Assembly (NCBI GenBank): GCA_002269645.1
Contig: NIVC01000753.1
Location: 366,979 to 430,978, forward strand
Direction of reading: 5' to 3'
Length of the DNA stretch: 64,000 nucleotides
DNA from: Macrostomum lignano
Taxonomy: Eukaryota
Below the pieces are notes generated by a model. The model made no database searches. It saw only the letters and a list, made by a program, of their open reading frames with translations, and was not told the DNA's origin. The translations under genes and the position numbers were made by a program. Below, piece by piece: positions 45,481 through 64,000 of the stretch. How positions within the stretch are numbered: position 1 is the first letter of the stretch; each line of letters opens with the position of its first letter.

Positions 45481-45980
45481 GGATTGTTTAATTGTTTTAT
45501 TTCTTCCTCCACACTCTATAATTCTTTTGTTACTGATAGAGTTTTTAAGTCATTGATATCCAATTTTACCTATAAATCATTGACGACGGGAATTAATCAG
45601 TGAACCAACTTATTCAGCTCTGCTATAAATTCATATTTGACTCGTGCAAAATCTTCTTATATTTAATTAGCAGCAAAATATCTCTCTATTTTATATGCGT
45701 TACTGTCGATGACATCTCTAGTGCTATCTATTTCTGATCGCCTACTGATAGTAGACTGTAGTGTTTTATTTATTTTGGCCAAATATTATATTGTTTTGCT
45801 AAAAACAGTGAAATAATACTAGCGTAAATACTGAAAAACAGAGAAACAGCTTGCGTTGCTTGACTGCGCTACATGGCAAGTCTTATCAGCTGTGTCACCG
45901 CCTGTGACGCCTTGCACTGTACAGCGTATGCACAAGTGGTCTTAAAACCGCTCGTTCGCTCGGTTTTCAACGCAGCTAAC

Positions 45981-47424
45981 ATGCCATTTCCAACTGATTC
46001 CATGACTCTGAAAGCTTTGCTGCTTCTAACAGCAGCAGCAATCTCTGCAACAATAGCAGTAGTAGAAGCCGCGTATCCGGTATGCAGTCGTCAGCTGAGC
46101 AGTTGCAGCTGTCAGACCGCTGATGGCGGCACCATCGACTTGTCACCTCTGGCGAAGGCAGCAGACTTTGCCTTTGCCGCCATGGGGCCTCAGCAGCCGT
46201 ATAACTACCTGTACAACCCCTGCACAGGGCAGCGCTGCGACAGCAGCCAAGGAGACGCCGCGTCATGTCAGAGATCTACAGATGGGCGCTATGTGAGAAT
46301 TAGAGTTGCTGCGTGCTGACTGGGAGAGGGTAGGGGAGAGAGGGTAGGGGAGAGAGGGTAGGGGAGAGAGGGTAGGGGAGAGAGGGTAGGGGAGAGATGG
46401 AAGAGGAGACAGGGAAGGGGAGAGAGGGAAGGGGAGAGAGGGAAGGGGAGAGAGGGTAGGGGAGAGAGGGAAGGGGGAGAGAGGGAAGGGGAGAGAGGGA
46501 AGGGGAGAGAGGGAAGGGGAGAGAGGGTAGGGGAGAAAGGGAAGGGGAGAGAGGGTAGGGGAGAGAGGGAAGGGGAGAGAGGGTAGGGGAGAGAGGGTAG
46601 GGGAGAGAGGGTAGGGGAGAGAGGGTAGGGGAGAGAGGGAAGGGAGAGAGGGTAGGGGAGAGAGGGAAGGGGAGAGAGGGTAGGGGAGAGAGGGTAGGGG
46701 AGAGAGGGTAGGGGAGAGAGGGTAGGGGAGAGAGGGTAGGGGAGAGAGGGTAGGGAGAGAGGGTAGGGGAGAGAGGGTAGGGGAGAGAGGGTAGGGGAGA
46801 GAGGGTAGGGGAGAGAGGGTAGGGGAGAGAGGGTAGGGGAGAGAGGGAAGGGGAGAGAGGGTAGGGGAGAGAGGGAGAGGGCTGACTATCCCTCCAACAC
46901 GGCTCGCCAACTGTCAGGAGTACCTGCTGGGCACCCAGTCGACAGCCCAGTTCTCCACGGAGCCGCAGGCGGGGCTCCAACTGACATACAGCGCCCTCTC
47001 CGGCGACGGCAAGCGCCGGTCAGCCCAGGTGCAGCTGGTCTGCGATCAGTCGGCCTCCGTGCCCAAATTCGAGGCTCTGGATGATGGCAGCGGTGGGCCG
47101 CAGTTGATTCTGTACAAAATGCGGCTGACCTCAAAGCACTGCTGCGAACAGTCCGGTGGAGGAGGAGGCGGCGGCGGCGGTGGCGGCCTAAGCGGCGGCG
47201 ACATCCTGCTGATTGTGTTCTTCTGCCTGGTGTTTGTCTACGTGGCTGGCGGCCTGGCTTTTAATGCGCTGGTGCGGAAGCTGCCAGTTTATCCTGATTC
47301 TGTGCCCAATAGAGAGTTCTGGCTGGCACTGCCGGGCCTTGTGCGGGACGGCTGCGTGTTCTCTTTCAATGGCGTTCGCGGCTTAGTGCGCGGCAGGGGA
47401 GGAAATAGCTATGAGAACATTTGA
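45981..47424 (+). CDS. Cation-dependent mannose-6-phosphate receptor / ATG27-like type I membrane protein; exons 45981(or 46002)-46292 and 46918-47424
   Basis: Signal peptide; MRH-like TIDLSPL...YLYNPC...C..LGT...VQLVCD...HCC; TM ILLIVFFCLVFVYVAGG; cytoplasmic PNREFW..LPGLVRDG and terminal YENI; phase-0 GT-AG intron. Confidence 0.88.
46322..46880 (+). repeat. 14-nt G-rich minisatellite (AGGGTAGGGGAGAG) filling the M6PR-like intron
   Basis: Tandem copies visible. Confidence 0.93.
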
Positions 47425-47930: not shown

Positions 47931-48394
47931 TAGGTCAAATTAGTTTTAAGAAAGTTATATTTTTGTGCTTTTAATGCTTGATACTTTTTAGTTTCAGTGG
48001 TTTAGTATCAATTTTTTCGCTAATCTCTATTTAGTTCATCATGTTGTCTGAATTCACTGGACATTCTTCTGGGAGCTTCTTTTTGGACAATTTATGTTAC
48101 TAGCGCATTATTGGCATTAACTAATGGCTCACGAATGGGCTGTCTGGGCGGCGACAGTACGCAACTGTTAAATTGAGATTTAGTTCGGATCAAACTGTCA
48201 CTATGCTTTTAAAGTCTAGATCTGGCTTTAATAAACTGCTCCTTAAGCTCTCAACAGTTCGTGTTTAACAAACAAAGTTGAATTATGAGAATCATATGTG
48301 AACTCACCGAAAGGCTTAAAGCGAAATAGAAATATACCGACCACTTAACTTTCATTGATTTTGAATTTATTAATTGACTTCTTTTGTCATCTGA

Positions 48395-49292
48395 ACTGCA
48401 TTCTGAACTGCACCATGAACTGCACCCTAAACTGCACCCTGAGCTGCACCCTGAACTGCACCCTGAACTGCACCCTGAACTGCACCCTGAACTGCACCCT
48501 GAGCTGCACCCTGAACTGCACCCTGAACTGCACCCTGAACTGCACCCTGAACTGCACCCTGAACTCTACACTGAACTGCACCCTGAACTCTACACGGAAC
48601 TGCACCCTGAACTCTACACTGAACTGCACCCTGAACTGCACCCTGAGCTGCACCCTGAACTGCACCCTGAACTGCACCCTGAACTGCACCCTGAACTGCA
48701 CCCTGAACTCTACACTGAACTGCACCCTGAACTCTACACGGAACTGCACCCTGAACTCTACACTGAACTGCACCCTGAACTGCACCCTGAACTGCACCCT
48801 GAACTGCACCCTGAACTGCACCCTGAACTGCACCCTGAACTGCACCCTGAGCTGCACCCTGAACTGCACCCTGAACTGCACCCTGAACTGCACCCTGAAC
48901 TGCACCCTGAACTCTACACTGAACTGCACCCTGAACTCTACACGGAACTGCACCCTGAACTCTACACTGAACTGCACCCTGAACTGCACCCTGAACTGCA
49001 CCCTGAACTGCACCCTGAACTCTACACTGAACTGCACCCTGAACTCTACACTGAACTGCACCCTGAACTGCACCCTGAACTCTACACTGAACTGCACCCT
49101 GAACTCTACACTGAACTGCACCCTGAACTCTACACTGAACTGCACCCTGAACTCTACACTGAACTGCACCCTGAACTCTACACTGAACTGCACCCTGAAC
49201 TCTACACTGAACTGCACCCTGAACTGCACCCTGAACTCTACACTGAACTGCACCCTGAACTGCACCCTGAACTCTACACTGAACTGCACCCT
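48395..49292. repeat. 12-nt minisatellite (GAACTGCACCCT; variant GAACTCTACACT) ending exactly at the Polinton left end
   Basis: Tandem copies visible; last unit GAACTGCACCCT abuts AGTAGT at 49293. Confidence 0.97.
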
Positions 49293-49412
49293 AGTAGTAT
49301 ACGTTTTTTTGACACAAAGCCGATTTCCTTATGGCGAAATACATAGTAAGTACAGGCCCAAAAAAATGGCAGAGTCTGAAATTTGCCGTGCACGCAAACT
49401 AGCTTTTACGCA
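49293..49412 (+). repeat. Left terminal inverted repeat
   Basis: 49304-49384 is the reverse complement of 63919-64000 with one substitution and one homopolymer length difference; weaker similarity continues to ~49412. Confidence 0.95.
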
Positions 49413-49630
49413 ATGAATTAACCAATTAGCTGAATCACTTTTACGCAAACACCTGTCTATCCACCTAAATTCTATCCGCAATGAATGCAGCTAATTACAA
49501 GCCCAACCAAAATTCAATTTGACACAAAGCTTATTTCGCGTATAACTTAACGCATTTAAATTCTTCTTTTCAAGCAGTATTGTATATTTCAACTAGATAC
49601 AAACACAATTTGACGCACAAATTAGCGAGT

Positions 49631-50194
49631 TTACAAATATTGAGGCAGCACTCGTAAAACAAAATTGCGTAATTTAGCATACAAGTATCGAAACGAACCA
49701 GTGCGAATTATATTCCGTTTAAAAACGCTTCGAATAAAACACTCTAGGTTTCCTCTGGTAGTCAACTTATGAAAAATATAAAAAATTACCCAAAATCCAC
49801 AACTTCCACTCTGTGGGTCTTGGATAGCAAAGCGACTATAACACCAATTTTTCGAATTTCCACATTCTTTTCCTAGCCATTTTGCTATTCTTGGCAATGG
49901 TACTAGACCAAGAGAATCAAAATATTCACCAAGTCGTTTGCTACCGCGACCTGCTCGATGACCATAAACCCAAACGCATACCCAATGTTTTCCGGGCAGG
50001 TTGGAGACGTCAGTATTAACGATAAAAAAATAGTCTTTACCGTCTAAAGGTAAGCGTCTAAGTCCACCAACAAAGTTTTGAGGAAAAACACCAAGAAATA
50101 CAACATTTAAAAAATGTGCGCACAATTTCGATACAACATTGCGAAGGAAGCGATCTGTTACACCACGATCTAGGATAGAATCAATTACTTCCAT
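49631..50194 (-). CDS. Adenain-like cysteine maturation protease (187 aa)
   Basis: FLGVFP, IVNTD...GKHWV, EYFDSLG, IQ...SGSCG: His/Asp/Cys triad intact. Confidence 0.92.
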   Translation of the reverse strand: MEVIDSILDRGVTDRFLRNVVSKLCAHFLNVVFLGVFPQNFVGGLRRLPLDGKDYFFIVNTDVSNLPGKHWVCVWVYGHRAGRGSKRLGEYFDSLGLVPLPRIAKWLGKECGNSKNWCYSRFAIQDPQSGSCGFWVIFYIFHKLTTRGNLECFIRSVFKRNIIRTGSFRYLYAKLRNFVLRVLPQYL

Positions 50195-51506
50195 ACTGTG
50201 CCAGGAACAATGTCGCGAAGTTCAGTCAGTTGCAGTTGCTTGTCAAATATACCTCCAAATATGACGTTGTACACGGTACTAGTTGCAGCATTGAAGCGTA
50301 ACTCTAGTTTTACATTTCCTTCCTTATACAGTTGCACTCCCCGTCCGACACCAGGTTCACTTCCAAGACTGAATGCAAAAATTGAGTAACCATTGGCGTA
50401 ATCCAGCATATTAAATCCAATATCTCGTCCCTGTAGATAGATTCCAAGCTGTTGTAGCAAAAAATTATACTCTGTCACACAATCATCTCCAAAGTTTGTC
50501 TGCAGCGGACGCGATGGTACCGAGTCTCCATTCACAAACACACCAATGCTGCTCACATTTGCATGCTCAAAGTTGAACGGATTTGTGTCCATGCTTCCAT
50601 TGAATGCCTTGTTGCTTACGATTGCCATCAATAAAAGCCGTGGTACCCCACTAGGAAACAAATTTTCATGCGTATGGCTAGACGATCCTCGGGTATAGTA
50701 AACGTACCAAGGCTTAGACTTCGGTGCGGATATAATGCATTGTGACTTTTAAGTCCATGAGCATGTGCACTGATAACACTCGGCGAGGGTTGAACAAACC
50801 GCAATCGTAGTTCTGCACGCAAAAACTTGATCTCATAGTCTTTTAAAACCGCACCAGCTTCTAATGTTGACCCGCTCAGGACAAATTTACTTTTTGCCGG
50901 TATGAGCTTGATCCGTAGTGGTGTCTTTGATAGTAGATACCGAGGCTGACGAAACAAATCCAAGAATAACGGCCCCGATACAGTGCACCGCCTATTGTTA
51001 GCAATGAGCGCCTGCCTCTTTGTTCGTCCATCGTTTTCACTTGTTGCATTCATTTTACCAGCTGTATCCTTGTAAAACCCCCACGGCAGTAAACCAGCCT
51101 TCTGAGCTGTATGTCCATATTCCAGTAATGTAAGAAGCATAGCCTTGTATGGATACATAAAACTACCACCTTCAACTACAGTATCGCCAATAGTAAATTG
51201 AACGTCCTCAAACAATGTTCCAATAACCAAATTATTCAAACAAACAAAATTTTTCGTTGCATCTATAGGTTCACCTTCACTATCACTAACGCTGAAGCAT
51301 ACCGTGAGCACAGTTTCTTGTAGATCCAAATACAAATCGCCTGCAGGCACAACTTCAAATTCGATAGGTGATCCTTTTGTAATACCATGTTGCGGTTGAA
51401 TGTTAGTATATCGATTATCCAAAACACTAAACTGAACAGGACTTTGATCAAATAGCGACAATTCACTTTTAAGAGCAGCAATATCAGGTCCAAGCAAATG
51501 GTTCAT
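50185..51506 (-). CDS. Major capsid protein (double jelly-roll, Polinton type), ~440 aa if a 1-nt frameshift near 50691 is corrected
   Basis: KSELSLF...SPIEFEV...YLDL..T.L...NNL..TLFEDV...YPYKA.L..LL.YG in ORF 51506-50628; continues as NLFPSGVPRL...NPFNFEH...P..PL...GYSIFAFSL...GNVKLELRF in ORF 50661-50185. Confidence 0.9.
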
Positions 51507-51507
51507 G

Positions 51508-51966
51508 CTACTTTTCAAACAGACTAAAAAGTTTCTTGCTTGCAGTAGCAGTTCGACGTTTTCCTATACCACCGGTCTTCTTGCGTTTTCTTTTGTTCAC
51601 GCGTCCCTTTCCACACTGTCTTGTTCGTCGTTTCTTTTGCCGTTTCTTCTTTCCTAAGCTTATAGCCACTCCACTGGTTCTTTTCCTTCGCTTTGGTCTC
51701 GAAACTGCAGTTGTATTAAACATCTCTTCGCTCGATTCTGTGTCCAAGTGACGCTTCCGACCCATACCAATTTTTGCTGTCGCACTTTTCAAATACTCCA
51801 GACCACGATCCAAGAAATCTTTCTTTGCGTTGCGTAGTACAGGATACACCAATCTGTCCGCCAAATTTGACAAAAAACCGTAACCTTCGTAAACAGGAAT
51901 GCCATATCCACCTCCACCTTCAGCAGATCTATTCGGACCAGAATAAAAAGCAAAAATAGGATCCAT
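51508..51966 (-). CDS. Basic (Lys/Arg-rich) putative core/DNA-packaging protein (152 aa from ATG 51966)
   Basis: GYGIPVYEGYGFLSNL motif followed by an extremely K/R-rich tail; abuts the MCP start. Confidence 0.7.
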   Translation of the reverse strand: MDPIFAFYSGPNRSAEGGGGYGIPVYEGYGFLSNLADRLVYPVLRNAKKDFLDRGLEYLKSATAKIGMGRKRHLDTESSEEMFNTTAVSRPKRRKRTSGVAISLGKKKRQKKRRTRQCGKGRVNKRKRKKTGGIGKRRTATASKKLFSLFEK

Positions 51967-52007
51967 TTCAACAGTCTTCTCTTCGTCATGCAATCCCAAT
52001 TCATGTG

Positions 52008-53168
52008 TTACTTATACACTTTAGAAAATAGTTTAGCAGTCTTTGCGTCAAGATCATTTTCGTTTAACCACTGACTTCTTGAGATTGGCATACCTTTCCA
52101 TTTTACTAGATACAGACGACTTCCATTTTTCGCTCGATCAGTTTCAATAACTTTTTCAATTTCATTAGGTGTTTCATCTGTCTCGTTTACCAACATTAGT
52201 TCCGCTTGGTTAAACCTTCCTTTCAGCACTTCAAATCCATCTTCAGGGTCCACTAATTCGTACATTGGCGGGTCTGTCAAGTGTACACGATGAATGCGAT
52301 ATTTTGAATTACTCCAAGTCGTAGTGTATCCTTTTTCAAATGTTCCTCGACGTCGTGTAATTCTAACCCAATCACCAACTTTAAATTTATTCTCATTCTT
52401 TTTAGTGTACGACTTCGCAAACATTTTGTCCCACAAAATTCCTTGTAAATGCGGGTCTGTCTCTACCCGTTTTGGTGTTTCTCCACTCAAGGATCGATGA
52501 GGACTAGAGTTGAAATTATCTTCCAATTGCGGTAAAATGTCAAACCATCGAGGTAAATTTTTTGCTCGAAAGTATCGTAATAGACGTTCCTTTAACGAGC
52601 GGATAAATCGTTCAGCCATGCTTGCCTTGTAATTGCTTTGGCTAACAAAAAATCGAACTCCTTCCTGTTTCAGCATTTGACGTGTAGCTCTTCCGAGAAA
52701 CTCCATACCAGCATCACCTTGTAAATAAACAGGCTTAAAACCACTTCGAAAAATCTCTAGTAATACTTGACTAACTTCTGAAGGCTTCTTTGTACGCAAT
52801 GGTCTTAGTCGTACAACTCTAGTAAAACAGTCGATAAGAACAAGTATGTAACGATAACCTCGATTTTCCGTCTTGTATTGAGGTAAATCTGCCAAATCGA
52901 TTTGAAACTGAAACTTTGCAACTGGTGGCACACTAATTTTTGGAGTTGGAAAGTTTCGTCGTGTTTTTCGAAATAAATGATGCTCATTTGTTGATCGCAC
53001 CCAATTATCAACTTCGCGCTTTGCAACTTTGTTCGTAATCTGTGGAAACTTTTTACGTACTTCACGAACAAGTATAGTCTTGTTACCACTAAATGAAGTA
53101 GGCCTGTTCAAGTTAAAAAAAGCATCCGTCAAAAATTCTTCAATTTCCTTACGCACTCGCTTCATCAT
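52008..53168 (-). CDS. Retroviral-type (rve) DDE integrase with C-terminal chromodomain (386 aa), intact
   Basis: FQIDLADL, YILVLIDCFTR, LQGDAGMEF, ASMAERFIRSLK; C-terminal IEKVI...YLVKWKG......W. Confidence 0.95.
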   Translation of the reverse strand: MMKRVRKEIEEFLTDAFFNLNRPTSFSGNKTILVREVRKKFPQITNKVAKREVDNWVRSTNEHHLFRKTRRNFPTPKISVPPVAKFQFQIDLADLPQYKTENRGYRYILVLIDCFTRVVRLRPLRTKKPSEVSQVLLEIFRSGFKPVYLQGDAGMEFLGRATRQMLKQEGVRFFVSQSNYKASMAERFIRSLKERLLRYFRAKNLPRWFDILPQLEDNFNSSPHRSLSGETPKRVETDPHLQGILWDKMFAKSYTKKNENKFKVGDWVRITRRRGTFEKGYTTTWSNSKYRIHRVHLTDPPMYELVDPEDGFEVLKGRFNQAELMLVNETDETPNEIEKVIETDRAKNGSRLYLVKWKGMPISRSQWLNENDLDAKTAKLFSKVYK

Positions 53169-53337
53169 CAGTTAGATTGATGCTAGTCGTTTGACAGTTG
53201 CAACAAAAGAACGAAGCCTCGATCGAATCTCCGTCAGTATCCTCGTTGTGCTCCTTTCCCAGAAACGGCACACATTCAGATTTTATGCAAAAAAACTCAC
53301 AGAGACGAATCAAAAGTTTTTGGAAGATAGATGACAT
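53149..53337 (-). CDS. Small Cys-rich hypothetical protein (62 aa) overlapping the integrase start
   Basis: ATG-initiated, fits the tightly packed co-oriented gene layout; no family recognised. Confidence 0.4.
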   Translation of the reverse strand: MSSIFQKLLIRLCEFFCIKSECVPFLGKEHNEDTDGDSIEASFFCCNCQTTSINLTDDEASA

Positions 53338-53449
53338 GGTTTGTCTTATTAAACTATATATTTTTCATAAACAAAAAATTAACCTTTTTAAAAAGCTTAT
53401 AGTGCTCGAATCAATTTTGTTAAAACGTAATCTGTAATTTTAAAACAAC

Positions 53450-54139
53450 TTAATTCAGTGTTTGATAATTTTCAAACAGACTAAGATCCTCCTTTGCAAC
53501 AGTTTTTGGAGCAGACATTAGCTCGTTTCGTACATGACGCCCGATTTGGTTTGCTGCGATTCCACGTTTTCGAAGAAAGTCTAAAAATGTTTTTAGTCCA
53601 CTAGGCGGTTGAGTCTCGTGTCGCTTAAGCGGTCTGTCTCGAACAACATATTCCATGAGATCTTGTATCTCGGCATCAGTCAAATTAGCCAGCATTGGTT
53701 CTGCATTCTTGTCCATGTCCGAAAATAGGTTTTGAGCGAGAGCTTCGAAACGTGGTAAAAAAACTTTAGGAATTTCCCTTGATTCGCTGGCATATGAACT
53801 TCTTACAGTAGTCCCTTTGCGAACAAGTGACAGATTGTCCTCGTCTCCAGTGCGATAGACTTTGCGCAATTTTAAAAGTTTGTCTTCCAATCTGCTTCGT
53901 TTCAATTGAGCTGTGTAATTTGGCTCCTTTTCCATTTCCTTGTCCAAGTTATCCATTTGGTCTCTCATTTCCACCATATTTTTTGCCAGAGCATCTTGCG
54001 GTGCGTCTAAAACTTCAGTTTTTCGAGGTGTCTCAGCAGTTGGTGACGATCCTTGCTCTGCACCTTGACATGCAGATTGATACACAGATTCAGGTACTAG
54101 ATACATTCGTTGAAAACTACTACTCTCGTTAGTTCGCAT
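53450..54139 (-). CDS. Hypothetical Polinton protein (229 aa)
   Basis: ATG-initiated ORF in the gene array; N-terminal RMYLVPE resembles a recurring Polinton motif (from recollection). Confidence 0.7.
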   Translation of the reverse strand: MRTNESSSFQRMYLVPESVYQSACQGAEQGSSPTAETPRKTEVLDAPQDALAKNMVEMRDQMDNLDKEMEKEPNYTAQLKRSRLEDKLLKLRKVYRTGDEDNLSLVRKGTTVRSSYASESREIPKVFLPRFEALAQNLFSDMDKNAEPMLANLTDAEIQDLMEYVVRDRPLKRHETQPPSGLKTFLDFLRKRGIAANQIGRHVRNELMSAPKTVAKEDLSLFENYQTLN

Positions 54140-54149
54140 TATATTCCTA

Positions 54150-54578
54150 CTACTTTCGTTGAATTGATCGTATTAAATTCGCTGCTCCCGCGGCGGTACC
54201 AACTACTCCAGACGTTATCCCAAGCGCAGTGCTTATAGCAGGTAGAGCGGCAATAATTGGAGCCAAAAAAGGTAAAAATCCTCCGTGTTGGACAAGTATT
54301 TTCCTTTTTGCAGTAATTGGAGTCTTCTGTTCCAAAAGCTGGCGTATATATCTGCGATGCTTCTCAAGTCGTCTTTTGTTACAGTTACTAATTTTAATAC
54401 GTCCACTAATAATATTAAACAGAAAGTCTACTAGACATCGTATCTCCGACTCTGAAAGTGTTTGTAAAAAACTTTTTCTCTGCTTTGGATGCTTTAGCCG
54501 ATAAACAATTTGTAGTAAAAAAGCACACTGACACAATGAGCGAGCATTTTGTTTTCCTTTTTCTGTTAGTTCGCTCAT
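54150..54578 (-). CDS. Small basic Polinton core-type protein with QHGGFLP motif (142 aa)
   Basis: Basic helical N-terminus, KILVQHGGFLPFLAPII, hydrophobic C-terminal segment. Confidence 0.75.
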   Translation of the reverse strand: MSELTEKGKQNARSLCQCAFLLQIVYRLKHPKQRKSFLQTLSESEIRCLVDFLFNIISGRIKISNCNKRRLEKHRRYIRQLLEQKTPITAKRKILVQHGGFLPFLAPIIAALPAISTALGITSGVVGTAAGAANLIRSIQRK

Positions 54579-54634
54579 TCTTACAAAACAAATTCACAAA
54601 ATTTTCTATTACACAATTAATCTTTGCTTATAAA

Positions 54635-55624
54635 TTAGTCCGACCTATGTTTAAAATGCAGTACGACAACAACGTGTGCTCCCGGATCAAAATTAAACGG
54701 TTTTCCGCGCTGGTCCGATAGTCGAATCGAAATCTCGTGAATTTGTTGTCGATTTGTTTTCAAGTAGTAGGGTGTTTGCAATGCACTGCTATCGCGTATA
54801 AGTTCTCCGTTTTTCTTTTGTTGGAGTTCCACAACTCGAAGCAACGGTACTGATGTACTTCCCACTGCTTGATACTCGATTATATCTGTGTAACAGTACA
54901 TGTAAACCGTTTTACTAGGCATCGGAGAAGGTAGCACAGCATCCAAGTAGGTTTTGTTAATGCGCCAAACACGATTTCTCAACCAATATTGGTGTACTTT
55001 GATGTACACTTCTCCTTCCGTTTTTCGAAGATAGTCTCCATGCGAAACAAGTCGTATAGCTTCACCAGGCGATAGAACACAATAAAAAACATAATAGTTC
55101 TCAGGTACTAGCGCTAGAGTATTGTCGAGACTTTTTATCAAATCCAAGTATGAACCATCCGGTGGTTGTACACTACCAGCGGCAGGTTTTGATAATTTTT
55201 CCGAGACAAGTCCAGAAAGTTTCTTCCAAGAGTCAAATTTGAAAGCGTCCATAAATGTAACTGGTAGTTCTAATCCAATAGTTTTTTCGCCTGAATTTCG
55301 TAAAAGCCAGGCAAATTTTTCATCTGTACCAGACGGTTGCCAGGAAACGTAAGCATCCAAGTCTGCCTCTGCCCAAACACGACCCCAATAGTTTTTCTTT
55401 AATCGTATTATTGAGTCAATGTCCGCAAAATATGGAACTTCAAATCGACGCTCACGATGAGCATTTGGCGTCGTAATTGCTCCATGGCACAGTAATTCAA
55501 CTAGTGCAACCTCGAAGAATCCGTTCAATAAATTTATTGGTTCAGTTAGTCGCACTCGAAATTCATTAGGCGAGTTGGTTTCGTAACTGATATCGTTTGA
55601 CGGCAAAAAAACGTAAAAACTCAT
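54635..55624 (-). CDS. Minor capsid protein / penton (329 aa from ATG 55624)
   Basis: MSFYVFLPSN...N....F.V.L..PI.L...FEVALVEL; YCYTDII....VG....PLLRVV; I..I.I.L.D..G....F. Confidence 0.88.
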   Translation of the reverse strand: MSFYVFLPSNDISYETNSPNEFRVRLTEPINLLNGFFEVALVELLCHGAITTPNAHRERRFEVPYFADIDSIIRLKKNYWGRVWAEADLDAYVSWQPSGTDEKFAWLLRNSGEKTIGLELPVTFMDAFKFDSWKKLSGLVSEKLSKPAAGSVQPPDGSYLDLIKSLDNTLALVPENYYVFYCVLSPGEAIRLVSHGDYLRKTEGEVYIKVHQYWLRNRVWRINKTYLDAVLPSPMPSKTVYMYCYTDIIEYQAVGSTSVPLLRVVELQQKKNGELIRDSSALQTPYYLKTNRQQIHEISIRLSDQRGKPFNFDPGAHVVVVLHFKHRSD

Positions 55625-55681
55625 TTTGAAATAAAACACAAACTAATATTGACAACAGTTTATAATTTGCTTATAATAATA

Positions 55682-56371
55682 TTACACAAACTTTGCATCA
55701 CATTCACGAGTATAGACAACTTGTTCATCACCAGAAAATATTCCTGTTCTCAATCGTAAAAAATCTGGTGTCACTTGCCGCAGGTCAATGAATAAATATG
55801 AAAAAGGTTTGTTATTTGTTGCGTCTTCATACACATTCACTAGAAACCTACTATTACGCGGATACATTTGTCGACCGAGATGTTCAACTGTGGTTCGATC
55901 GCGCACACTACGAGTTAGACAAATATAACTAGCTGATAAACTTCGCATGCGTGCTTCTGGATCAGACTTGTTAAAAAGACCTTGACAAAGGTACAGACAA
56001 GTCAAAGGGATATGATGCGCATGCTTTGTAAACATACTAGTAAATTCTGGCAACTTAGCAATCTCGCTTTGCAAGTCGTCAACAACAACCAAATCGTGTG
56101 GTAAAAAACGATTAATCATCTGTGGTGTGAATTCGGGTACAAAAACAATAGGGTCAAGACCGCTTTTTTGCCAGCATGTTCTAATTCGTTGTTGATCGTC
56201 TGGTTTCAAACTTGATCCATGGCACCAAACAAGACGGCACGGTTTTTTATCAAATAATTCTTTTCGTTCAGTCAACAAACGCAACGTCCATTCAGTTTTA
56301 CCCGAGTTTGAAGGTCCAGCAATAATAAATGTAGAATCGTGAGCTAGTTGCATATTGTATGGCTGCTGCAT
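55682..56371 (-). CDS. A32/FtsK-like genome packaging ATPase (~229 aa)
   Basis: Walker A IAGPSNSGKT, Walker B VVVDD, HH, SLSASYI, PFSYLFIDL...LRTGIF. Confidence 0.93.
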   Translation of the reverse strand: MQQPYNMQLAHDSTFIIAGPSNSGKTEWTLRLLTERKELFDKKPCRLVWCHGSSLKPDDQQRIRTCWQKSGLDPIVFVPEFTPQMINRFLPHDLVVVDDLQSEIAKLPEFTSMFTKHAHHIPLTCLYLCQGLFNKSDPEARMRSLSASYICLTRSVRDRTTVEHLGRQMYPRNSRFLVNVYEDATNNKPFSYLFIDLRQVTPDFLRLRTGIFSGDEQVVYTRECDAKFV

Positions 56372-56373
56372 TT

Positions 56374-56817
56374 TCAAGCACCAAAGCGTTGCTTAACTTG
56401 CATAACCTTGGTAACCAACTTCGCAGCTAGTTTTTCTTTCCAACCAGTAGACGGATCGTGGGCAATCTCTCGTGCACCAGATTCTAATAGCTTATCAGCT
56501 TTTAACCTCTCTTGCACGTCAGAATTTTTATCATAGGCCACGTCGTGAAGCATGCACAAATTGTCAAGCCGATTAATTCCTCGTTGTCCTTTTGCTAGCC
56601 TAGCTTGCAGTTGCGTACCTGGACCACAAAACTGATATCCGCCGGGTAAATGTGCTTCAAATGGTAAATGATTAATTAACCAATTTACGACACCATAACC
56701 TTGTTGCTTTTTATTAATCTTTCTAATAGATTTCTTCTTTTTACGAATGCTCTTCTTTTTCTTTTTAAAACCTCGATCTTTCGCTGGAGACATTTTTACA
56801 ACATATATTTTAGGCAT
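56374..56817 (-). CDS. Parvovirus-VP1u-like phospholipase A2 domain protein with basic N-terminus (147 aa)
   Basis: HLPGGYQFCGPGT (Ca-binding-loop-like), NRLDNLCMLHDVAY (catalytic HD), ADKLL. Confidence 0.88.
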   Translation of the reverse strand: MPKIYVVKMSPAKDRGFKKKKKSIRKKKKSIRKINKKQQGYGVVNWLINHLPFEAHLPGGYQFCGPGTQLQARLAKGQRGINRLDNLCMLHDVAYDKNSDVQERLKADKLLESGAREIAHDPSTGWKEKLAAKLVTKVMQVKQRFGA

Positions 56818-56908
56818 AAATTTTTAAAATTGCTTATAGTATTTACAAAGCTCTCGCATAGTGCACCAATCACCAAAGAAAAAAATCAGTTTATTATTAT
56901 TATTATAC

Positions 56909-57391
56909 TTATTGGCCAGTGCTGCCAAAGCCGCCAAAGCCGCGCCGCTTGGTCGGCGGCTCAATCATCCGAATCGAATTGTCTGCTTCAGTCACATAGA
57001 CTGAAGCAAGCACGGCCTGCTCCAGAACCAGTTGTGCAATACTGAGCCCGGCATAGTACTCAAAGTCTTCCGGACTGTAATTAAACAAGACTATACAGAT
57101 TTCACCAGTATAGTCGGGGTCGATTACGCCACCGCCAACAAATAAGCTGTGCAGAGCCATGCTGGAACGTCCCGCTATCCTGCCATAGGTACCAGGCGGT
57201 AAGCGAATTTTGAGTCCGGTTCGCACACTCCGGGACTCGTAGGCCGGAATGGTACCATCGACGCCAGCGCAAAGATCATACCCGATCGACCCGACAGTTT
57301 TTCGGGTCGGAATCGTTGCCGAATCGTATAGACGTTCAACTAAAAGCTTACGATCAGTTAGTTGTTGTTGCTGCTGCTGCTCGGGATTCAT
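56909..57391 (-). CDS. dut: Trimeric dUTPase (160 aa from ATG 57391)
   Basis: All five motifs recognisable: SIGYDL, GRIAGRSS, GGVIDPDYTGEI, IAQLV, RGFGGFGSTG. Confidence 0.95.
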   Translation of the reverse strand: MNPEQQQQQQLTDRKLLVERLYDSATIPTRKTVGSIGYDLCAGVDGTIPAYESRSVRTGLKIRLPPGTYGRIAGRSSMALHSLFVGGGVIDPDYTGEICIVLFNYSPEDFEYYAGLSIAQLVLEQAVLASVYVTEADNSIRMIEPPTKRRGFGGFGSTGQ

Positions 57392-57683
57392 GTCGATTCT
57401 TGTAGCTGAAAGTTTAAAAAAAAGTTTTTTTTCTTGAAACATGAACGATAGCACTACATTTACGTCTACTACAAACACAAGCTTAGTCTTGAGAATCTAA
57501 CTATAAAAAATATACTTTTTCAAATAATTAAACACAAAAAAGTGCTAAAATTATAATTTAAACGAATGCCGGTATCATTTATTTATTGTAAATAATGATC
57601 AATGAAAAAATTAATGATGGGTTACAGTCTTCTATAGCATGCTATTACTTTGTACAACAAAAGAGATCAGAGCATATTGTTAA

Positions 57684-58014
57684 TTAATTAGCCAAGTGCC
57701 AGTGTCCAAAGGGTAGCGAATTAATTGAACTTGTCCAGGATCGCTTCGTATCGAAGAAGCTTAGTGCAAGTTTTCTTTGTTGCATCAAAAAAAACTTTCT
57801 GTTTTCGAGAACGAATGGACTGTATGCGCGAAAACACAAGTTGTCGCTTGTGTAAGACTCTTAAATAGTCTTGATGCTTTAAACTGCTCTGTGCGGCTTT
57901 AGAAGCAGTACTGCTCCAGCTTTGCGACCGATTGAGACTGGAACTTTAAACGATTGCTGCTTAACCAGACCGGACCGGACTGGACCGGACCGGACTGGAC
58001 CGGACTCCCCGCGC

Positions 58015-58046
<32 letters not shown>

Positions 58047-58760
58047 ACCACCACCACCGCCGCCACCACCACCACTGCCGCCGCCCGCCCCCACACCACC
58101 GTGGGACGTATTTGTTGACAGTGTGCTTGCATGGCTTTTGCGATAAACGCAGAGCATCAAGTCTAGCTGCTCGATTGCTCTATATTGCCAATTACTACCT
58201 CGAGATTGAAAATTGTCAATTTTTATTAACAACTGATTAATAACGCGTGCGAACCAGTCATTGTAGGCCTCGGGAGATAACAGCATGTCACTGTTTGTAA
58301 TCGTCTCATCAAATGATATTGTCGCAATGTTGGTATTAAAATAGACCGAAATGATCTCTTCGCTGCTCGAGCCATCGTTGTCGTCTGCTGCTGTTTTCGG
58401 TCGAAATAGTGTCACTTTCAAGTGAAAGCAGACTCTTATTAATAAACTGGGTGAGCCAATTTTTTCCAATATTTTAAATATTGGTTCTCTTAAAGACGCA
58501 ATCAACTCGCCAGGAAGTAACTCGCCAGAGCTGTTGCCTTGTTGTTCAAGAGTGGGAGTAAATTCGACAAAATTTACCCGACCACGATGAGCTGACTCGC
58601 GCAAAGCGATGGACCACCCATCTGGTGGGTTTTCGATCAGGTTTTGCAGCGATCCGGTCAGTAATCGTTGCGGTGAAAAACAAGCACCATGCGAGTGAGC
58701 ATGCAGCTCGGCTTGATTACTGAACTTTTTTCTGCAGATTTGGCATTGTGCACGCGGCAT
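57684..58760 (-). pseudogene. Internally deleted protein-primed DNA polymerase B: C2H2 finger + N-terminal segment fused out of frame to the last ~70 codons
   Basis: CQICRKKF....ELHAH; IDNFQSRGSNWQYRAIEQLDL (GSGW-type motif). After a junction near 57900-57915, other frames read SKAAQSSLKHQDYLRVL...IQSIRS and KLALSFFDTKR....NSLPFGHW*, the typical Polinton pPolB C-terminus. No exonuclease or polymerase motifs A-C are present. Confidence 0.82.
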
Positions 58761-58983
58761 TGTGTGCACCTAGCTCGACAACGAGCGTATCGAGCATAAT
58801 ATTAATAGATGATCCGGTTTGTCATTTGCGGCTGTAAGAAAAATGATGATTTGGTTAGTTATAGGTATAGCTGACACGTTTACTATTAGAGAAAACAATT
58901 GGTAAATAAATAAAAAAAGACAAAATGTTTGTAAAAGAATGCATCGCAACTGCGATTTGACAGCAATTGTTTACTTGTTAAGT

Positions 58984-59541
58984 TTAGTTATTAACAGAGA
59001 TTAAAAAATCCTTGACATGGTTAAGAATATTATTCAATTCATGAGTGTTTTGAACGCCCATAATAACAAACTTTTTCGAAAAAAATATGTTACAAAAAAG
59101 CCTTGGTTTTGATGCTGATCTAACAGAAACTGCTTGTGGGAAATTTTCTGCATCGTATCCAACCAGATAATTCGAATAGTAGCCTGCATATCTTTTTAGA
59201 CTAGAGAAACCGAATTTTGGCCAAAGATGACCAATAAAGCCGACATAGGTACTGCTCTGAATTTTTACTGAATCAAAATCTACACAATTAATAGTGTCGT
59301 TGATAAATCGTAAAACTGAGACTATCTGAGAATTTGATTTACAGCCATATATAGTTAGTTTTCCTGCTGGATAAAGTTGGATTTTAGCATTTGAATAAAT
59401 TGTCTTTAGCATTGTTGGTCGGCTTAGGAATAGTTTGCAAAACCGGTTTCTGGTCTGTAGCTTCTGTTTGGTCTGCTTTAAATCAAATTTTTCAAACGGG
59501 TGCAGCTTCAGACTCGCAGTAACTATTAATAGGACAAGTCG
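58984..59541 (-). CDS. TATA-binding protein (TBP)-like protein; 185-codon open frame after a splice acceptor, first in-frame ATG at 59412
   Basis: Manual alignment to the TBP core: IVTASL..FDLK; AKIQLYPAGKLTIYGCKS (cf. TALIFSSGKMVCTGAKS); DSVKIQS (cf. DFKIQN); YDAENFP...KPRLFCNIFFSKKFVIMG (cf. YEPELFP...KPRIVLLIFVSGKVVLTG). Confidence 0.82.
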   Translation of the reverse strand, partial: RLVLLIVTASLKLHPFEKFDLKQTKQKLQTRNRFCKLFLSRPTMLKTIYSNAKIQLYPAGKLTIYGCKSNSQIVSVLRFINDTINCVDFDSVKIQSSTYVGFIGHLWPKFGFSSLKRYAGYYSNYLVGYDAENFPQAVSVRSASKPRLFCNIFFSKKFVIMGVQNTHELNNILNHVKDFLISVNN

Positions 59542-59751
59542 CTAAAACGGAAAATAAATAATAAGAAAAGTTAAACATGACTATACTATCGTAAATTCTA
59601 ATATTAAATTACAAAACCTGGTTAGCGTACAAGGAGTAGCAAAAAATGTTTTGAGCTTTTCCCTAAAAAATAATATTTCCCTAGCCAAAAATTTGATAAA
59701 TATAGTGGAATAAGTTAGTTAAAACTTGGATAAAATTAGTCAAAAATTTTG

Positions 59752-60950
59752 TTACTCATCATCAGAGCTGCTGTACGAGTCGTCCGATGAAGACACGCTA
59801 GCTGTAGTAGCGTCCGCAGCAGCACGCTTTAAAAATGCTGTCTCCTTGGACGCTACCCTGGTTCCAGAGGCAGGTGTACTCACCAAGATCTTTGCTGGTG
59901 GAGCCTCCACCCAGTCTGTGCCATCTGCACCAGCTTCGGCAGAATTGTTTTGCTGTTTTGCACCGCTGCGTTTTCGAACTTGCTTTTTAGGCGGCGGTTC
60001 AATAGAGGCTGGCGCTGCATTCGATGTAGTCGACTTCTTCGATACGGTGGTGGTAGACCGACGCTTTGCAGGTGACTTGGCAGGTGTCACCTGGCTTGAA
60101 TTCTGCAGGCTTTGTTCATTTGCTTCTTCTTGCTCACAGGTAGATGTTGGGGACGGACTCCTGCTTCTAATTGCTGACTTGGTCGCGGGTAGGTGTGCAA
60201 GCACTCCCTTGAACATGTCGAGGCGCTGCAACATGTTGTCGGAAGATTCTATGAGTGTCAGAGAGCGCACAGCGAATGTAATGCGCCAGACGAGGCAGCC
60301 TTTTGGACAATACAAGCTCGTTGCTTGCACTGTCATTTGGTAGGTACCGCTGACACCTTTGAAATCGGAAATGGACACCTCCTTCCCGTGTGGATGATCG
60401 TTGCTGATCCTGATTGTGGCACAAGGGTAAGCAGGCTTTATAGCCAGCCATTGTTGAGGCACAAACTCGAGGACGTCGTTAGCATGCTGATGAGCTGGTT
60501 TTGTTAGTCGTGCCAAGGGTCGAGCATCTTGAATCTCGTTCAACTTGACCGATAGACCTTTTTCGACTTGACTGCAAAACATTATATAAATTATGAATAT
60601 AGTTTCCTAAAATTAATTGTATAAATTTAATATGGTGCTCACCGGAGAGAGTGGAAGAGTTCCTTATCGCAGCTGTCTGGATGAAATTGGACACTTACTG
60701 CGTCGCGAGAGTCGTGTCTGCAAGACGGATGATCGAGCTCTGGCCTTTCTGCGATTCCACGAAAAAGCTCCATTGGAGCCTTGGTTTGCAATATAATTGG
60801 GTACCATTTTGTACACTCGATTGATGGTTTCCACGCAATAGATCGAAACTGGCAGGACGAACCAGTCGTGGTTGTAGACTGCTCTCCAACGTAAAAAATC
60901 GGACTCGAGTCGGAGCGTACAATTGACTCCGTCTTGATGCAAGCTGCCAT
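59752..60950 (-). CDS. Spliced gene, join(60950-60643, 60571-59752), 375 aa; probable T7 gp2.5/NCLDV-type OB-fold ssDNA-binding protein with disordered acidic tail
   Basis: 71-nt AT-rich intron CG/GTGAGC...TTTTGCAG/T joins two ORFs in frame (308+820 nt = 376 codons). Motifs YPIILQT..M..FRGI and GTYQMTVQATSLY....WRITFAVRSLTLIE, plus the tail SSSDDSYSSSDDE. The SSB call is inference. Confidence 0.72.
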
Positions 60951-61028
60951 GTCTTACAAGCAATTGAATATAGTATTTCTTTTGCTGTAATGATTGAGCT
61001 CATGAAAAATTGACCATTTCGGGTCTTG

Positions 61029-61036
61029 TATTTATA
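61029..61036 (-). promoter_or_regulatory. Candidate TATA box (TATAAATA) ~80 nt upstream of the SSB-like ATG
   Basis: Consensus TATA sequence at a plausible spacing; the region is AT-rich, so chance occurrence is possible. Confidence 0.4.
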
Positions 61037-61639
61037 GCAAGCTTTGCATGCTGTTTGTGAACTAGTAAACAAATTTAATTGTTGCGTGCTGATTAAGACA
61101 TTGTTGCGTGCCAAAGGTGGCATAAGTTTCTAGGGTGGGTTGCATGATTAGGTCTAATTTTACGCAAATGTAGGTTGATATTTTATACAATAAAATTAAT
61201 GAATCTTAGGCACACTAGTTATAAATTTGCAAGAGTAACACGATGGCAAGCGTTTAATAAGAAGACTGCTGGTTGCTGCTTCATTAGATTGGTTTTGTTC
61301 TCAAGTAGAATGTAATTAAAATATTTTGCGACTTGAAAAATTAGCAATCTTGGATTTTAGAGTAAAAATAAGCTGCACGCGGTGCTATGAAATTAATTTA
61401 TTGAAAGTTTTGCTTGCATGTTGGAATTTTTTAGCTCGCACGGTGACAAGAGATTGCTTGAGTAACCTATATATAGAGTGTTACTTTTCAAACAGAAAAG
61501 GTATAGTTGTAACTCAGCTTTTGCAGTCCTATATTGAGCAGAAGCTATATAGAGTTACACTATCATGCTGCGACGCGCAGCTTGTTGGGACTATAATGAC
61601 TGCCGCTGCTATAACCGCATGCAGTCAGTGCAGTTGACA

Positions 61640-62345
61640 CACAAATGCTGTTTGGACTAAGCTAAATTACTGTGTTGAGACAGTTAAGCTGGACCACGGC
61701 TAAATCACTATTGATACGGTTAATTGCTACTAGACCCATGGCTAAATCACTGTACGTTGAGACGGTTAAGCTGGACCACGACTAAATCGCTGTACGTTGA
61801 GACGGTGGTTAAGCTGGACCATGGTTATAAAACTGGACGGGTGGTTAAGCTGGACGACTACAGCTAAAATTACTGTTGAGTCAGTTATGCTAGACCACAG
61901 CAGCCAAATCACAGTTGAGGTAAAGCTGACCATAGCTAATTCTCACTGTTGAGACGGGTGCTGCTGCTTGGCTCACAGCTAAATAACTGGACAGTTAAGC
62001 TAATCGGACTACAGCTAAATCCCTGTTGAGACAGTTGCCTGGACCACAGCTAAAATCACTGTTGAGGCAGTTAAGTCTGGACAACAGCTAAAATTACTGT
62101 TGAGACAGTTAAGCCTTGACTATAGCTAAATCATCGTTGAGGTAGTTAAGCCTGGACTATAGCTAAATCACTGTTGATGCAGTTTTAAGCTAGACCACAG
62201 CTAAATCATACTGCTGAGGCAAAAAAGCCGGACCACGGCTAAAAACTGTTGAGGCAAAAGCTGGACCACAGCTAAATCATACTGTTGAGGCAAAAGCTGG
62301 ACCACAGCTAAATCATACTGTTGAGGCAAAAGCCAGACCATGGCT
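61640..62345. repeat. Degenerate ~35-40-nt tandem repeats inside the Polinton (CTGGACCACAGCTAAATCACTGTTGAGACAGTTAAG-like)
   Basis: About 18 imperfect copies visible. Confidence 0.85.
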
Positions 62346-63839
62346 AAAGAAACGTATGAAAAAAAATTATTTGCATGGATTAATAATTTTTGTTTAATGA
62401 TGACTGTACAAGATATTGACTTTATATTGAATTAAATAATTTCAATAAATGGCGAATAAAATTGAAAGAATTTTTTAGAATAATGAATTTATAGAGATTA
62501 TATTATTGATTACAGACTTGTTTGATATATACTAAAAGAGCAATTACTTGGACACATTGCTGGCAAAATTTTATGAAGAGTTAGAAAAAATGTCTTTTAA
62601 GATAGTCCCAATATTCAAATACTTGAGTTGTATTACAGGTCTTTGGCTAATTCTACTTGGTAGAAGCCTGTGCTCATTTGAGAGACTTTTACAGACTTGA
62701 TGTCCTTCTGTACAATAATTGCGCGAGTTTAGCAGCGCGTTGAACTTGGGTAGAAATAGCAATTGATGATGATGGTTTTCAGTTGCTGTCGTTGGTTTGG
62801 TACTTGTAGGCTACTGCAAGTTTGCTTTGTTGGGTCATTGTAGCTGGTTGTGATGGTGGTGGTGGTGCATACTGCAGTTGGTCAGTTGTCGTGGGTTCGA
62901 TTGCTGCCTAATTGATGAATAACATCAGTTCTTGTGTAAATGCGATCTAGCTCAGTTGTCTGTCTCTCGACATGAATCGAGGTTACTCTGGCGAGAGATG
63001 TAAATATGATGCTCTTGCAGCAGAATTGGATGTGGTGGTGTCGTGGCAAATGCGTTTGCACTGATCTGGAGGTGGCCGCGTGAAGAAACCATTCTTGAAT
63101 GCTATAATAATGGATAAGATGAGGGAAATTTGGTATAGGTGCATGTATACAATGTATATAGAAACTGAACTAAAGAGAATCAGTCTAAACAGAAACCGAA
63201 CTAAGCAGACAATCAATCTAGAAATTCTGACTAGCAGAGTATTAGTCTAAACAGAACCGAACTAGCAGAAATCAATCTAGAGACTGAACAACAGAGGATC
63301 GGTCTAAACAGAAACCGAACTAACAATCAATCTAGAAACTAAACTATAGCGAACAGTCAATCTAAAAAGAAAAACTGAACTAGAGTAGGTGATTATCTTA
63401 CCTTGTTTAACATAGCGCTCGGCCAATTCTGCTGACGTGATCGCTTCATTTCACTTAAGATGTAAGTATAGTTGAACAAGTAGTATAATGTAAACTTGGT
63501 TTAAGTTATTTAATATTTTCTGTGTCAGGTGTTCGTATATATATATATAGTATAAAGAAGAAGCATGTTGACGCAGTTGTTGACATAGTATCTGTAAACC
63601 ATCTGCTCAAGTTGGTGCAAAAATTCTATAGGCACTCAAGAATAGATCATTTACTATCTTTCTTCAAAAGGGTGATAATATTCACAAGTTTTCAATATTT
63701 CAAAAACACTTGAAATGTGTGAATAGCTTTGGAGTAAATTTGTCTTGAATGGAATCCTTTGAAGTGTGTTTGTGTCACCATTGCTAGAATCGGTTACTTG
63801 TATTTTGGACAGGTGGGATATGCAATTCGTCTGAATAAT

Positions 63840-64000
63840 CACGTTGCGTAAAAGATATTTAGCGTGCACTTGGAATTTCAGACTGCGTGCACATGGAATT
63901 TCAGACTGCGTGCACATGAAATTTCGGACTCTGCCATTTTTTTGGGCCTGTACTTACTATGTATTTCGCCATAAGGAAATCGGCTTTGTGTCAAAAAAAA
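63840..64000 (-). repeat. Right terminal inverted repeat (runs off the window), with extra tandem copies of a ~24-nt GTGCACGCAGTCTGAAATT unit
   Basis: Reverse complement of 49304-49412. Confidence 0.95.

Follow-up and report, generated by a model that had tools for sequence, protein, structure and literature searches.

How do Polintons time the expression of their genes, and how self-sufficient are they as viruses? Positions 49293-64000 of a 64,000-nucleotide stretch from the flatworm Macrostomum lignano (contig NIVC01000753.1 of assembly GCA_002269645.1, positions 366,979 to 430,978; hereafter the window) hold a Polinton of about 14.7 kb that raises both. Beside its virion genes it encodes a TATA-binding protein (TBP) and a binding protein for single-stranded DNA (SSB), and it has lost 3.16 kb of its protein-primed DNA polymerase (pPolB). 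What copies such an element, and what would it do with a TBP? The explanation preferred here joins a defective family that uses the polymerase of a helper, a viral TBP that would switch transcription from early to late genes, and trans-splicing of a host leader; as a whole we judge it moderately probable.

A Defective Family and Its Probable Helper

From the letters alone, an earlier note had described a Polinton-like block bounded by terminal inverted repeats (TIRs) with its genes on one strand, and the TIRs, the map of open reading frames (ORFs) and the Pfam matches agree. Every recognizable gene lies on the minus strand, in the order SSB, TBP, pPolB remnant, dUTPase, phospholipase A2 (PLA2), ATPase, penton, protein X, 229-aa ORF, integrase, basic protein, major capsid protein (MCP) and protease (Table 1). 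An AGTAGT terminus stands at 49293; the upstream end lies about 11 nt beyond the window, whose edge is also the end of the contig. The TIR arms (49304-49396 and 63907-63999) measure 93 nt at 96% identity, or 104 nt when compared with whole copies. TIRs with AG(T)AG ends, a 6-bp target duplication and an rve integrase with a chromodomain, as in adintoviruses, place the element among the Polintons. The note's further label of a near-complete virus went too far, as the complete pPolB of an autonomous Polinton is missing throughout the window family, which would need a helper.

A sister subfamily (about 96% identical) carries an extra 3.16 kb at window position 57885 and with it a 1412-codon pPolB frame (Pfam E 6e-13), with a Cys motif at residue 297 and the exonuclease (EXO) and palm domains further downstream. 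The note had listed pPolB as deleted; the loss is a single 3.16-kb deletion common to the whole family and no decay of this copy. The junction is spanned at 99-100% identity by 30 of the 40 scored matches in the assembly, a lower bound on the number of such places, and the whole internal stretch is present in three of 12 matches, the polymerase-complete sister copies. Defective elements outnumber the complete sister by about 10 to 1 in the assembly. Nine other copies are 99.7-99.8% identical over the full length held and contain no extra polymerase sequence; two of them have longer upstream tandem repeats. Seven copies differ by 0-8 substitutions over 12.3 kb (at least 99.9% identity), and the 17 upstream ends read fall into 12 different flanks, hence at least 12 insertion sites. 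Among eight contigs with both ends, five (three sites) show the 6-bp duplication, and three further flank pairs match across contigs, the window's pair among them. Two points weigh on the other side: assembly collapse may inflate the identity of copies, and the flanks are unmatched in the other three of the eight contigs.

The window element is a non-autonomous derivative because 3.16 kb of pPolB are deleted. Both ends are retained, and with them the integrase, SSB, TBP, every virion gene and a presumed terminal protein (TP); the family would borrow the polymerase only. It likely spread recently, copied with the polymerase of the sister element; the use of a helper polymerase is the part of the explanation held with high confidence. 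The remnant itself stops five residues short of the presumed vOTU cysteine (Cys297). The published layout of adintovirus pPolB is TP-vOTU-EXO-palm (PMC11161782), and by that layout the remnant would roughly equal the piece that the protease would release, its TP domain being presumed: the best Atlas score for the N-terminal domain is 0.82, and scores below 0.9 are leads only. A terminal protein standing alone would recall the Stylophora polinton and the adenoviruses, which have a separate one (PMC11161782). Like defective-interfering and other non-autonomous derivatives, the family has kept its ends and lost its polymerase; unlike them, it has lost neither the integrase nor any virion gene, and its complete form is the rarer one. 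It shows a Polinton spreading, in all likelihood, through complementation.

A second, independent internal-deletion family, akin to the sister subfamily, was also seen (C300, C4827, C2428). The complete pPolB (locus L042:6787-10000) holds an endonuclease VII-like zinc insert (Pfam E 5e-12).

A Conserved but Altered TBP

The TBP is recognized by Pfam (E 2.3e-7; 31 bits against a cut-off of 22.9) and by fold. It has the two repeats and saddle of the family; the top 39 Foldseek rows listed for its predicted model (pLDDT 89, pTM 0.60) are all TBPs, and a fold comparison gives Z 12.0 over 168 aligned residues with a root mean square deviation (rmsd) of 7.7. Against this, the two halves are mis-oriented in the model (rmsd 7-8, pTM 0.60). 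In the genome 83 matches to the frame were found, many of them 40-46% identical. Seven such loci, representing about five subfamilies at 40-46% protein identity, have the same gene order as far as read; these relatives carry a deoxynucleoside kinase after TBP, which the window family does not, and in one case the element measures 18.8 kb and shows both TIRs and a 6-bp duplication.

The protein has a dN/dS of 0.14 against the sister and shares 17-21% identity with host TBP. D130, E132, F134, F153 and an aromatic at 57 (Y57) are kept in 6/6 subfamily sequences; Q55, T63, T98 and N151 are fixed in the same six, and the host has Leu or Val there. By the pattern of TBP-DNA structures, D130/E132 are taken as the stirrup, and the kinking aromatics and DNA-facing sites are assigned likewise. 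Read in this way, the viral TBP appears to keep the kinking aromatics and acidic stirrup and to bear polar residues across its DNA face.

Where does such a TBP come from? The earlier note had called the gene characteristic of nucleocytoviruses, yet the comparisons do not single out giant viruses as its source: the fold matches cellular and viral TBPs about equally, identity to host TBP is about 20%, and Polintons from other environments contain similar TBPs. The same Arg-Pro signature marks TBPs in five of 81 outside Polinton loci, and the TBP-bearing loci group with the window lineage in an MCP tree (SH-aLRT 94; a quick, midpoint-rooted tree of 44 rows with one short row left out). TBP therefore marks a wider clade and is no one-off capture. 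Word-index searches for TBPs near this length or longer gave no match, at a sensitivity too low to inform either way. In some metagenomic Polintons (L134:5325-6261, L138, L140) a small upstream ORF without known family overlaps TBP, at the place of the SSB.

Splicing and a TBP Frame Without a Start Codon

The TBP domain begins at 59541, 43 codons ahead of the first ATG. These ATG-less codons encode the fold's first strand and helix and are as conserved as the rest (35-47% against 40-47% across five subfamilies). The frame is preceded by a pyrimidine-rich splice acceptor, in phase 0 in 8/9 copies (the ninth read is one base off); an ATG mini-exon ahead of it was not found in five of seven copies. 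How, then, is translation started?

Splicing of the early genes can be seen directly at the SSB. Its intron is skipped in contigs from three of four runs of different studies (the RNA status of the four runs, none recorded as RNA, is a guess). Wherever a subfamily has exon 1 intact, the intron interrupts it in phase 2 at the same point, and public gene models remove it identically. At the pPolB acceptor, one contig of run X7 continues at 58832 into 23 foreign letters that equal the 3' part of the published spliced leader of M. lignano (PMC8629364). The contig belongs to the polymerase-complete sister (18/18 variants), and the acceptor is identical in the window. Flatworm leaders end in AUG and are able to start translation (PMC12582326, citing Cheng et al., 2006). 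The pPolB frames themselves fit such a use. In three copies the first Cys is preceded, at a distance of five codons, by an ATG; in three, a TTCCAG acceptor occupies exactly that place; and in a further three, an acceptor in phase 0 stands 27-30 nt upstream of it, with ATG absent for 30 codons. An in-frame ATG at greater distance is also found in two of the acceptor copies. The host spliceosome would thus remove the SSB intron, as seen, and add the leader at the pPolB acceptor, as seen once in the sister; the leader's AUG would supply the first Met to the ATG-less TBP frame and to the ATG-less pPolB frames of other subfamilies.

Four observations pull the other way. The leader occurs in one contig of one run only, with the RNA status guessed; it was not seen at the TBP acceptor in contigs of the four runs, which can show presence and not absence; two contigs cross the TBP acceptor unspliced; and the TBP acceptor could pair just as well with a conserved donor in the SSB tail (59883). 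This donor, a phase-0 GTRAG after P-x-K-x-L in 9/9 copies, suggests that TBP might instead be made by cis-splicing as an SSB-TBP fusion, in a unit that, as in adenoviruses, joins one 5' part to several acceptors. Such a protein would couple late transcription to replicating single-stranded DNA and is compatible with the promoter model given below. Public gene models do leave the genomic frame at 59883, PAA86571.1 for an acceptor before the kinase gene and another for an acceptor in the tail. Yet the SSB-TBP joint was not seen in the contigs of the four runs, which again show presence and not absence, a weak search found no longer protein containing TBP, and the donor overlaps a Val-Ser dipeptide, so that its conservation may partly reflect protein constraint. 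The exchange of ATG for acceptor in pPolB, moreover, keeps an M-P-x-x-x-C start, which suits a leader AUG. We regard the fusion as unlikely and retain start by the leader.

A Candidate Late Promoter Box for Each TBP

If the element makes a TBP, which promoters would it serve? In the window lineage the motif TATAAGC keeps its position before penton (7/7), protein X (6/6), MCP (5/5) and PLA2 (6/8), 48-64 nt upstream of most starts; some of these rows are close kin, which leaves about five independent ones. A second Polinton lineage of the same genome, whose genes occupy both strands and whose MCPs form a long branch apart, encodes a TBP of its own (E 1e-23); its first gene is PC4-like and has a normal TATA box. 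Judged by score and frame length, this lineage seems to account for most of the 150 TBP matches scored in the genome (13 loci read). Here a k-mer count picked (C)TTAAGAA, which stands before seven of 11 genes.

The two motifs part by lineage. TATAAGC occurs 4-6 times per element on the sense strand in 5/5 elements of the first lineage (0.5-1.0 expected) and 0-1 times in the second; CTTAAGAA occurs 5-7 times in 5/5 elements of the second (0.3-0.5 expected) and never in the first. Three copies of a third family, TBP-less as judged by a sensitive profile, contain no CTTAAGAA and 0-2 TATAAGC on the virion-gene strand (three on the other strand, against about one expected from shuffles), together with 16-18 TATAAAA (about six expected). 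Host flank DNA is not enriched for TATAAGC (1 and 2 against 3.1 expected). Motifs were chosen and counted on the same elements, over whole elements, so the enrichment is no independent test; the crossed absence is the better evidence.

These patterns suggest a switch. At the normal TATA box (61036), host TBP would start a single early transcript of SSB, TBP, the kinase in relatives, and pPolB; the viral TBP would then recruit host RNA polymerase II to TATAAGC before the capsid, core and PLA2 genes. It must use the host enzyme because the element encodes no viral RNA polymerase. That the viral TBP reads TATAAGC is a proposal from sequence patterns that we narrowly favor. More tentative, and to us slightly short of an even chance, is the general picture in which animal Polintons run their own nuclear transcription cascade, with sigma-factor-like TBPs and lineage-private boxes (TATAAGC, CTTAAGAA) that make the two lineages orthogonal to each other and to the host, a TBP started from the AUG of the host leader, and a polymerase-less form, still keeping its terminal protein, that took over the family.

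Several findings weigh against the link between TBP and box. The correlation behind it spans two lineages with TBP and one family without, and shared descent alone could account for the boxes. The 81 outside loci show no enrichment of TATAAGC (14 sense, 34 antisense), and inspection by eye of the one long metagenomic Polinton with TBP revealed no obvious repeated box. The ATPase, integrase, basic protein and protease genes mostly lack TATAAGC, and the MCP box lies 115-160 nt upstream, within a coding region. Finally, both TATAAGC and CTTAAGAA contain TAAG, the core of baculovirus late promoters.

This last point would fit boxes that serve as late promoters for another virus, a large DNA virus of baculovirus- or nudivirus-like kind that co-infects the host and whose RNA polymerase would be used in the manner of virophages, with the TBP doing another job such as dampening host transcription. 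The dependence of virophages and polinton-like viruses on giant viruses is established, and the SSB is of giant-virus type. Two different boxes, however, track two different TBPs within one host, TATAAGC resembles a TATA variant at 48-64 nt before most starts, and the TBP stirrup is kept; the early genes use host splicing, so expression is nuclear. On these grounds, with no search of the genome aimed at a helper virus, a helper-virus promoter is distinctly improbable. More doubtful still is a TBP that acts as decoy or repressor by binding host TFIIB or host promoters, with boxes read by host TBP or TRF2 or not promoters at all: the much altered DNA face with loss of the first N-repeat Phe region, the kept stirrup, and PDB titles showing wild-type TBP on single G(-26) and C(-25) TATA variants would suit it, but the altered DNA-face residues are invariant in six subfamilies, which suggests a specific ligand, and the box is not enriched in host flanks and differs between lineages.

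A viral TBP with a cognate late box, if true, would give Polintons a concrete mechanism that works without a helper virus, in a laboratory flatworm with a young, transcribed family. Two natural TBP-box pairs would be a rare case of rewired TATA recognition, of use for the study of TBP specificity and for orthogonal promoters, and a viral gene that lacks ATG and is completed by the leader would bind the element to hosts whose leader ends in AUG.

The Spliced SSB

The earlier note had taken the ORF 59752-60582 as the SSB gene; the identity stands, but this ORF is exon 2 only. An alternative 142-codon ORF (60695-61123) was dropped, having no match in divergent subfamilies. In the predicted structure of a 375-aa SSB record, residues 10-230 are mostly confident. 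The model aligns with African swine fever virus (ASFV) CP312R over 188 residues (Z 12.4, rmsd 5.0), with T7 gp2.5 (Z 7.2) and Enc34 SSB (Z 7.1), and with many giant-virus proteins (E down to 8e-10); its Atlas neighbors at 0.92-0.93 are giant-virus clusters. With this OB-type fold and an acidic tail, as in T7 gp2.5 and giant-virus proteins, it is modeled as a giant-virus-type SSB of the T7 gp2.5 fold, predicted to bind single-stranded DNA. Profile and structure searches thus upheld the note's TBP call by Pfam and fold and its SSB call by fold, Pfam detecting neither SSB exon. DUF2738 is presumably also an SSB family.

Eight matches to the SSB were found among 1.8 billion proteins, the named ones all from this host, and public SSB records of the element carry the label Macrostomum lignano. 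One outside SSB (P0007) was recorded; no relative was found in the 81 outside Polinton loci, most of them partial. T7-like SSBs are known from four giant-virus families and from gamadviruses (PMC11253617).

Comparison With Known Elements

In their termini (AGTAGT, TIRs, 6-bp duplications), in pPolB and the rve integrase with its chromodomain, and in the genes for PLA2 and a protein X-like product, the window element and its relatives agree with Polintons/Mavericks and Alpha-class adintoviruses (Krupovic et al., 2014, PMC4028283; Starrett et al., 2021, PMC8502044); candidates stand here for the ATPase, protease, MCP and penton of that group. The presence of PLA2 is characteristic of Alpha adintoviruses (PMC8502044), and Pfam recognizes both a PLA2-like and a protein X-like virion protein here, as two separate genes, unlike in Alpha adintoviruses. 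TBP, T7-type SSB, the kinase of relatives, the intron, leader trans-splicing (seen once) and a candidate late box were found here and not in the available accounts of that group; PMC8502044 and its preprint mention TBP, where available, only in legends on MELD viruses from non-animal data sets. Nucleocytoviricota have the SSB fold (ASFV CP312R) with its acidic tail and the TBP fold, but in contrast to them the element has no viral RNA polymerase and its SSB gene is spliced; a giant-virus relative of SSB or TBP at sequence level was not found, the TBP search being of low sensitivity. TBPs also occur in mirusvirus-like elements (PMC10675990). Coral polintoviruses and mriyaviruses with VLTF3/VLTF2 (PMC11131425, PMC11253617) are likewise mid-size elements with a late transcription factor, and gamadviruses share the T7-like SSB (PMC11253617); the factor here is instead a TBP with a candidate cognate box, and mriyaviruses are no Polintons. 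The flatworm spliced-leader operons (PMC8629364, PMC12582326) have the same leader, U-rich spacers and acceptors ahead of downstream genes, but here the operon would be that of a virus-like element whose TBP frame lacks its own start codon.

The note's suggestion that the gene set is undescribed has held, as no publication with this set was found. Nor was a description found of a Polinton/Maverick TBP, late promoter, SSB or leader-spliced viral mRNA in the literature, a scope outside which lie supplements and Repbase entries that could hold TBP labels; "TATA" is absent from the main text, in the portions available, of 10.64898/2026.06.19.733378, PMC11131425, 10.1101/2024.03.25.586562, PMC10748475 and PMC11161782. 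What sets this system apart is the contrast of two lineages within one genome, a TBP lacking ATG together with the exchange of ATG for acceptor, a spliced SSB of giant-virus type and a defective family that dominates.

Virion Genes and Other Features of the Element

Pfam names TBP, dUTPase, PLA2, the rve integrase with chromodomain and adenovirus protein X above cut-off, and gives no naming match for the MCP, penton, ATPase or SSB of the window element. The MCP frame is disrupted near 50.6-50.7 kb in the window; among nine other copies read, five have an intact 440-codon frame, two the same break and two a shortened frame. At E 1e-20 it has 112 relatives, including Polinton-type proteins of fish, echinoderms and a spider, some labeled F54H12.2-like. 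It is 30-47% identical to the MCP-position proteins of other Polintons, the closest outside MCPs reaching 67% and 46%, and has no sequence match in the PDB; it is a candidate double jelly-roll capsid protein. The penton, packaging ATPase and adenain protease are likewise candidates, from motifs, synteny and Polinton homologs, with weak library scores; penton-like matches occur in 29 of the 81 outside loci. The 229-aa ORF is probably a core protein. Scans of IMG/VR with TBP and MCP returned no close relative, and an exact look-up of 10 element proteins no match.

Table 1. Positions of the genes, signals and ends of the Polinton in the window.
Feature	Position	Strand	Remarks
TIR, downstream end (AGTAGT terminus)	49293..49396	.	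one 6-bp target-duplication copy at 49287-49292, within 12-bp host satellite
Adenain/Ulp1-type maturation protease (candidate), 187 aa	49631..50194	-	His-Asp-Cys motifs; weak (Pfam E 0.038, ASFV S273R E 0.008), backed by position and conservation
Major capsid protein (candidate)	50185..51506	-	two frames in window copy
Basic core-type protein, 152 aa	51508..51966	-	contains TATAAGC (51658-51664) preceding MCP
rve integrase, C-terminal chromodomain, 386 aa	52008..53168	-	Pfam above cut-off
Small Cys-containing ORF, 62 aa	53149..53337	-	TATAAGC at 53395-53401
Conserved ORF, 229 aa	53450..54139	-	conserved in sister subfamilies; similar ORF at same place in other Polintons
Protein X/mu-like core protein, 142 aa	54150..54578	-	Pfam Adeno_PX E 2.3e-6; TATAAGC at 54626-54632
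Penton-like minor capsid protein (candidate), 329 aa	54635..55624	-	pairwise E 2e-9; TATAAGC at 55669-55675
Packaging ATPase (candidate), 229 aa	55682..56371	-	Walker A and B; matches in 35/81 outside Polinton loci
Parvovirus-type PLA2 protein	56374..56817	-	Pfam E 3.4e-9; TATAAGC at 56832-56838
dUTPase	56909..57442	-	Pfam E 1.5e-29; start probably 57391, behind acceptor-like site
Orphan 3' end of pPolB	57684..57885	-	behind deletion junction (~57885)
pPolB N-terminal remnant, codons 1-292 of 1412	57879..58760	-	zinc finger, presumed terminal-protein domain, Gly linker
Splice acceptor ahead of pPolB	58832..58845	-	host spliced leader joined here in one contig
TBP, 185 codons	58984..59541	-	no ATG at start; phase-0 acceptor AG at 59543-59542
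SSB exon 2	59752..60571	-	disordered linker, acidic tail; conserved phase-0 splice donor at 59883
SSB intron, 71 nt	60572..60642	-	GT-AG
SSB exon 1	60643..60950	-	
Canonical TATA box ahead of SSB (first gene)	61030..61036	-	TATAAA or TATATA there in 8/9 copies
Upstream region	61100..63906	.	conserved in sister subfamily only
TIR, upstream end	63907..64000	.	truncated by contig end

In the upstream 2.9 kb no conserved coding frame was found beyond the sister subfamily; the region contains 36-bp tandem repeats near 61650-62350, and a 183-codon ORF of other copies is disrupted there in the window.

Related Loci and Surroundings

Other elements of the genome vary the same themes. At locus L055:1618-2871 (minus strand) TBP and the deoxynucleoside kinase form a single open frame, which in other subfamilies is two overlapping frames. 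A 16-kb element (L048-L049) has its early end duplicated in inverted orientation in place of the virion genes after the ATPase. The second lineage (L072:89-8116, L074-L075, L112-L131) is abundant, and in it an ORF with an exonuclease-like start overlaps TBP. The third family (L076-L081) is AT-rich, lacks TBP, encodes a protein with an F5/8-type (discoidin) domain and often has TATAAAA immediately before the ATG. Very numerous 9-kb elements (L084:3228-10000, L082, L086-L087) have AGTAG ends, inverted repeats and a pPolB-type frame, with no virion gene detected; one of them sits inside a copy of the window family (C4072).

The insertion site in the window (48247-49292) is a 12-bp satellite, and copies C3924 and C3539 likewise lie within tandem repeats. 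The stretch 45873-47424 holds probable host gene pieces, a secreted Cys-rich exon and then a single transmembrane exon, divided by a purine-rich repeat, and the remainder of the window is rich in minisatellites.

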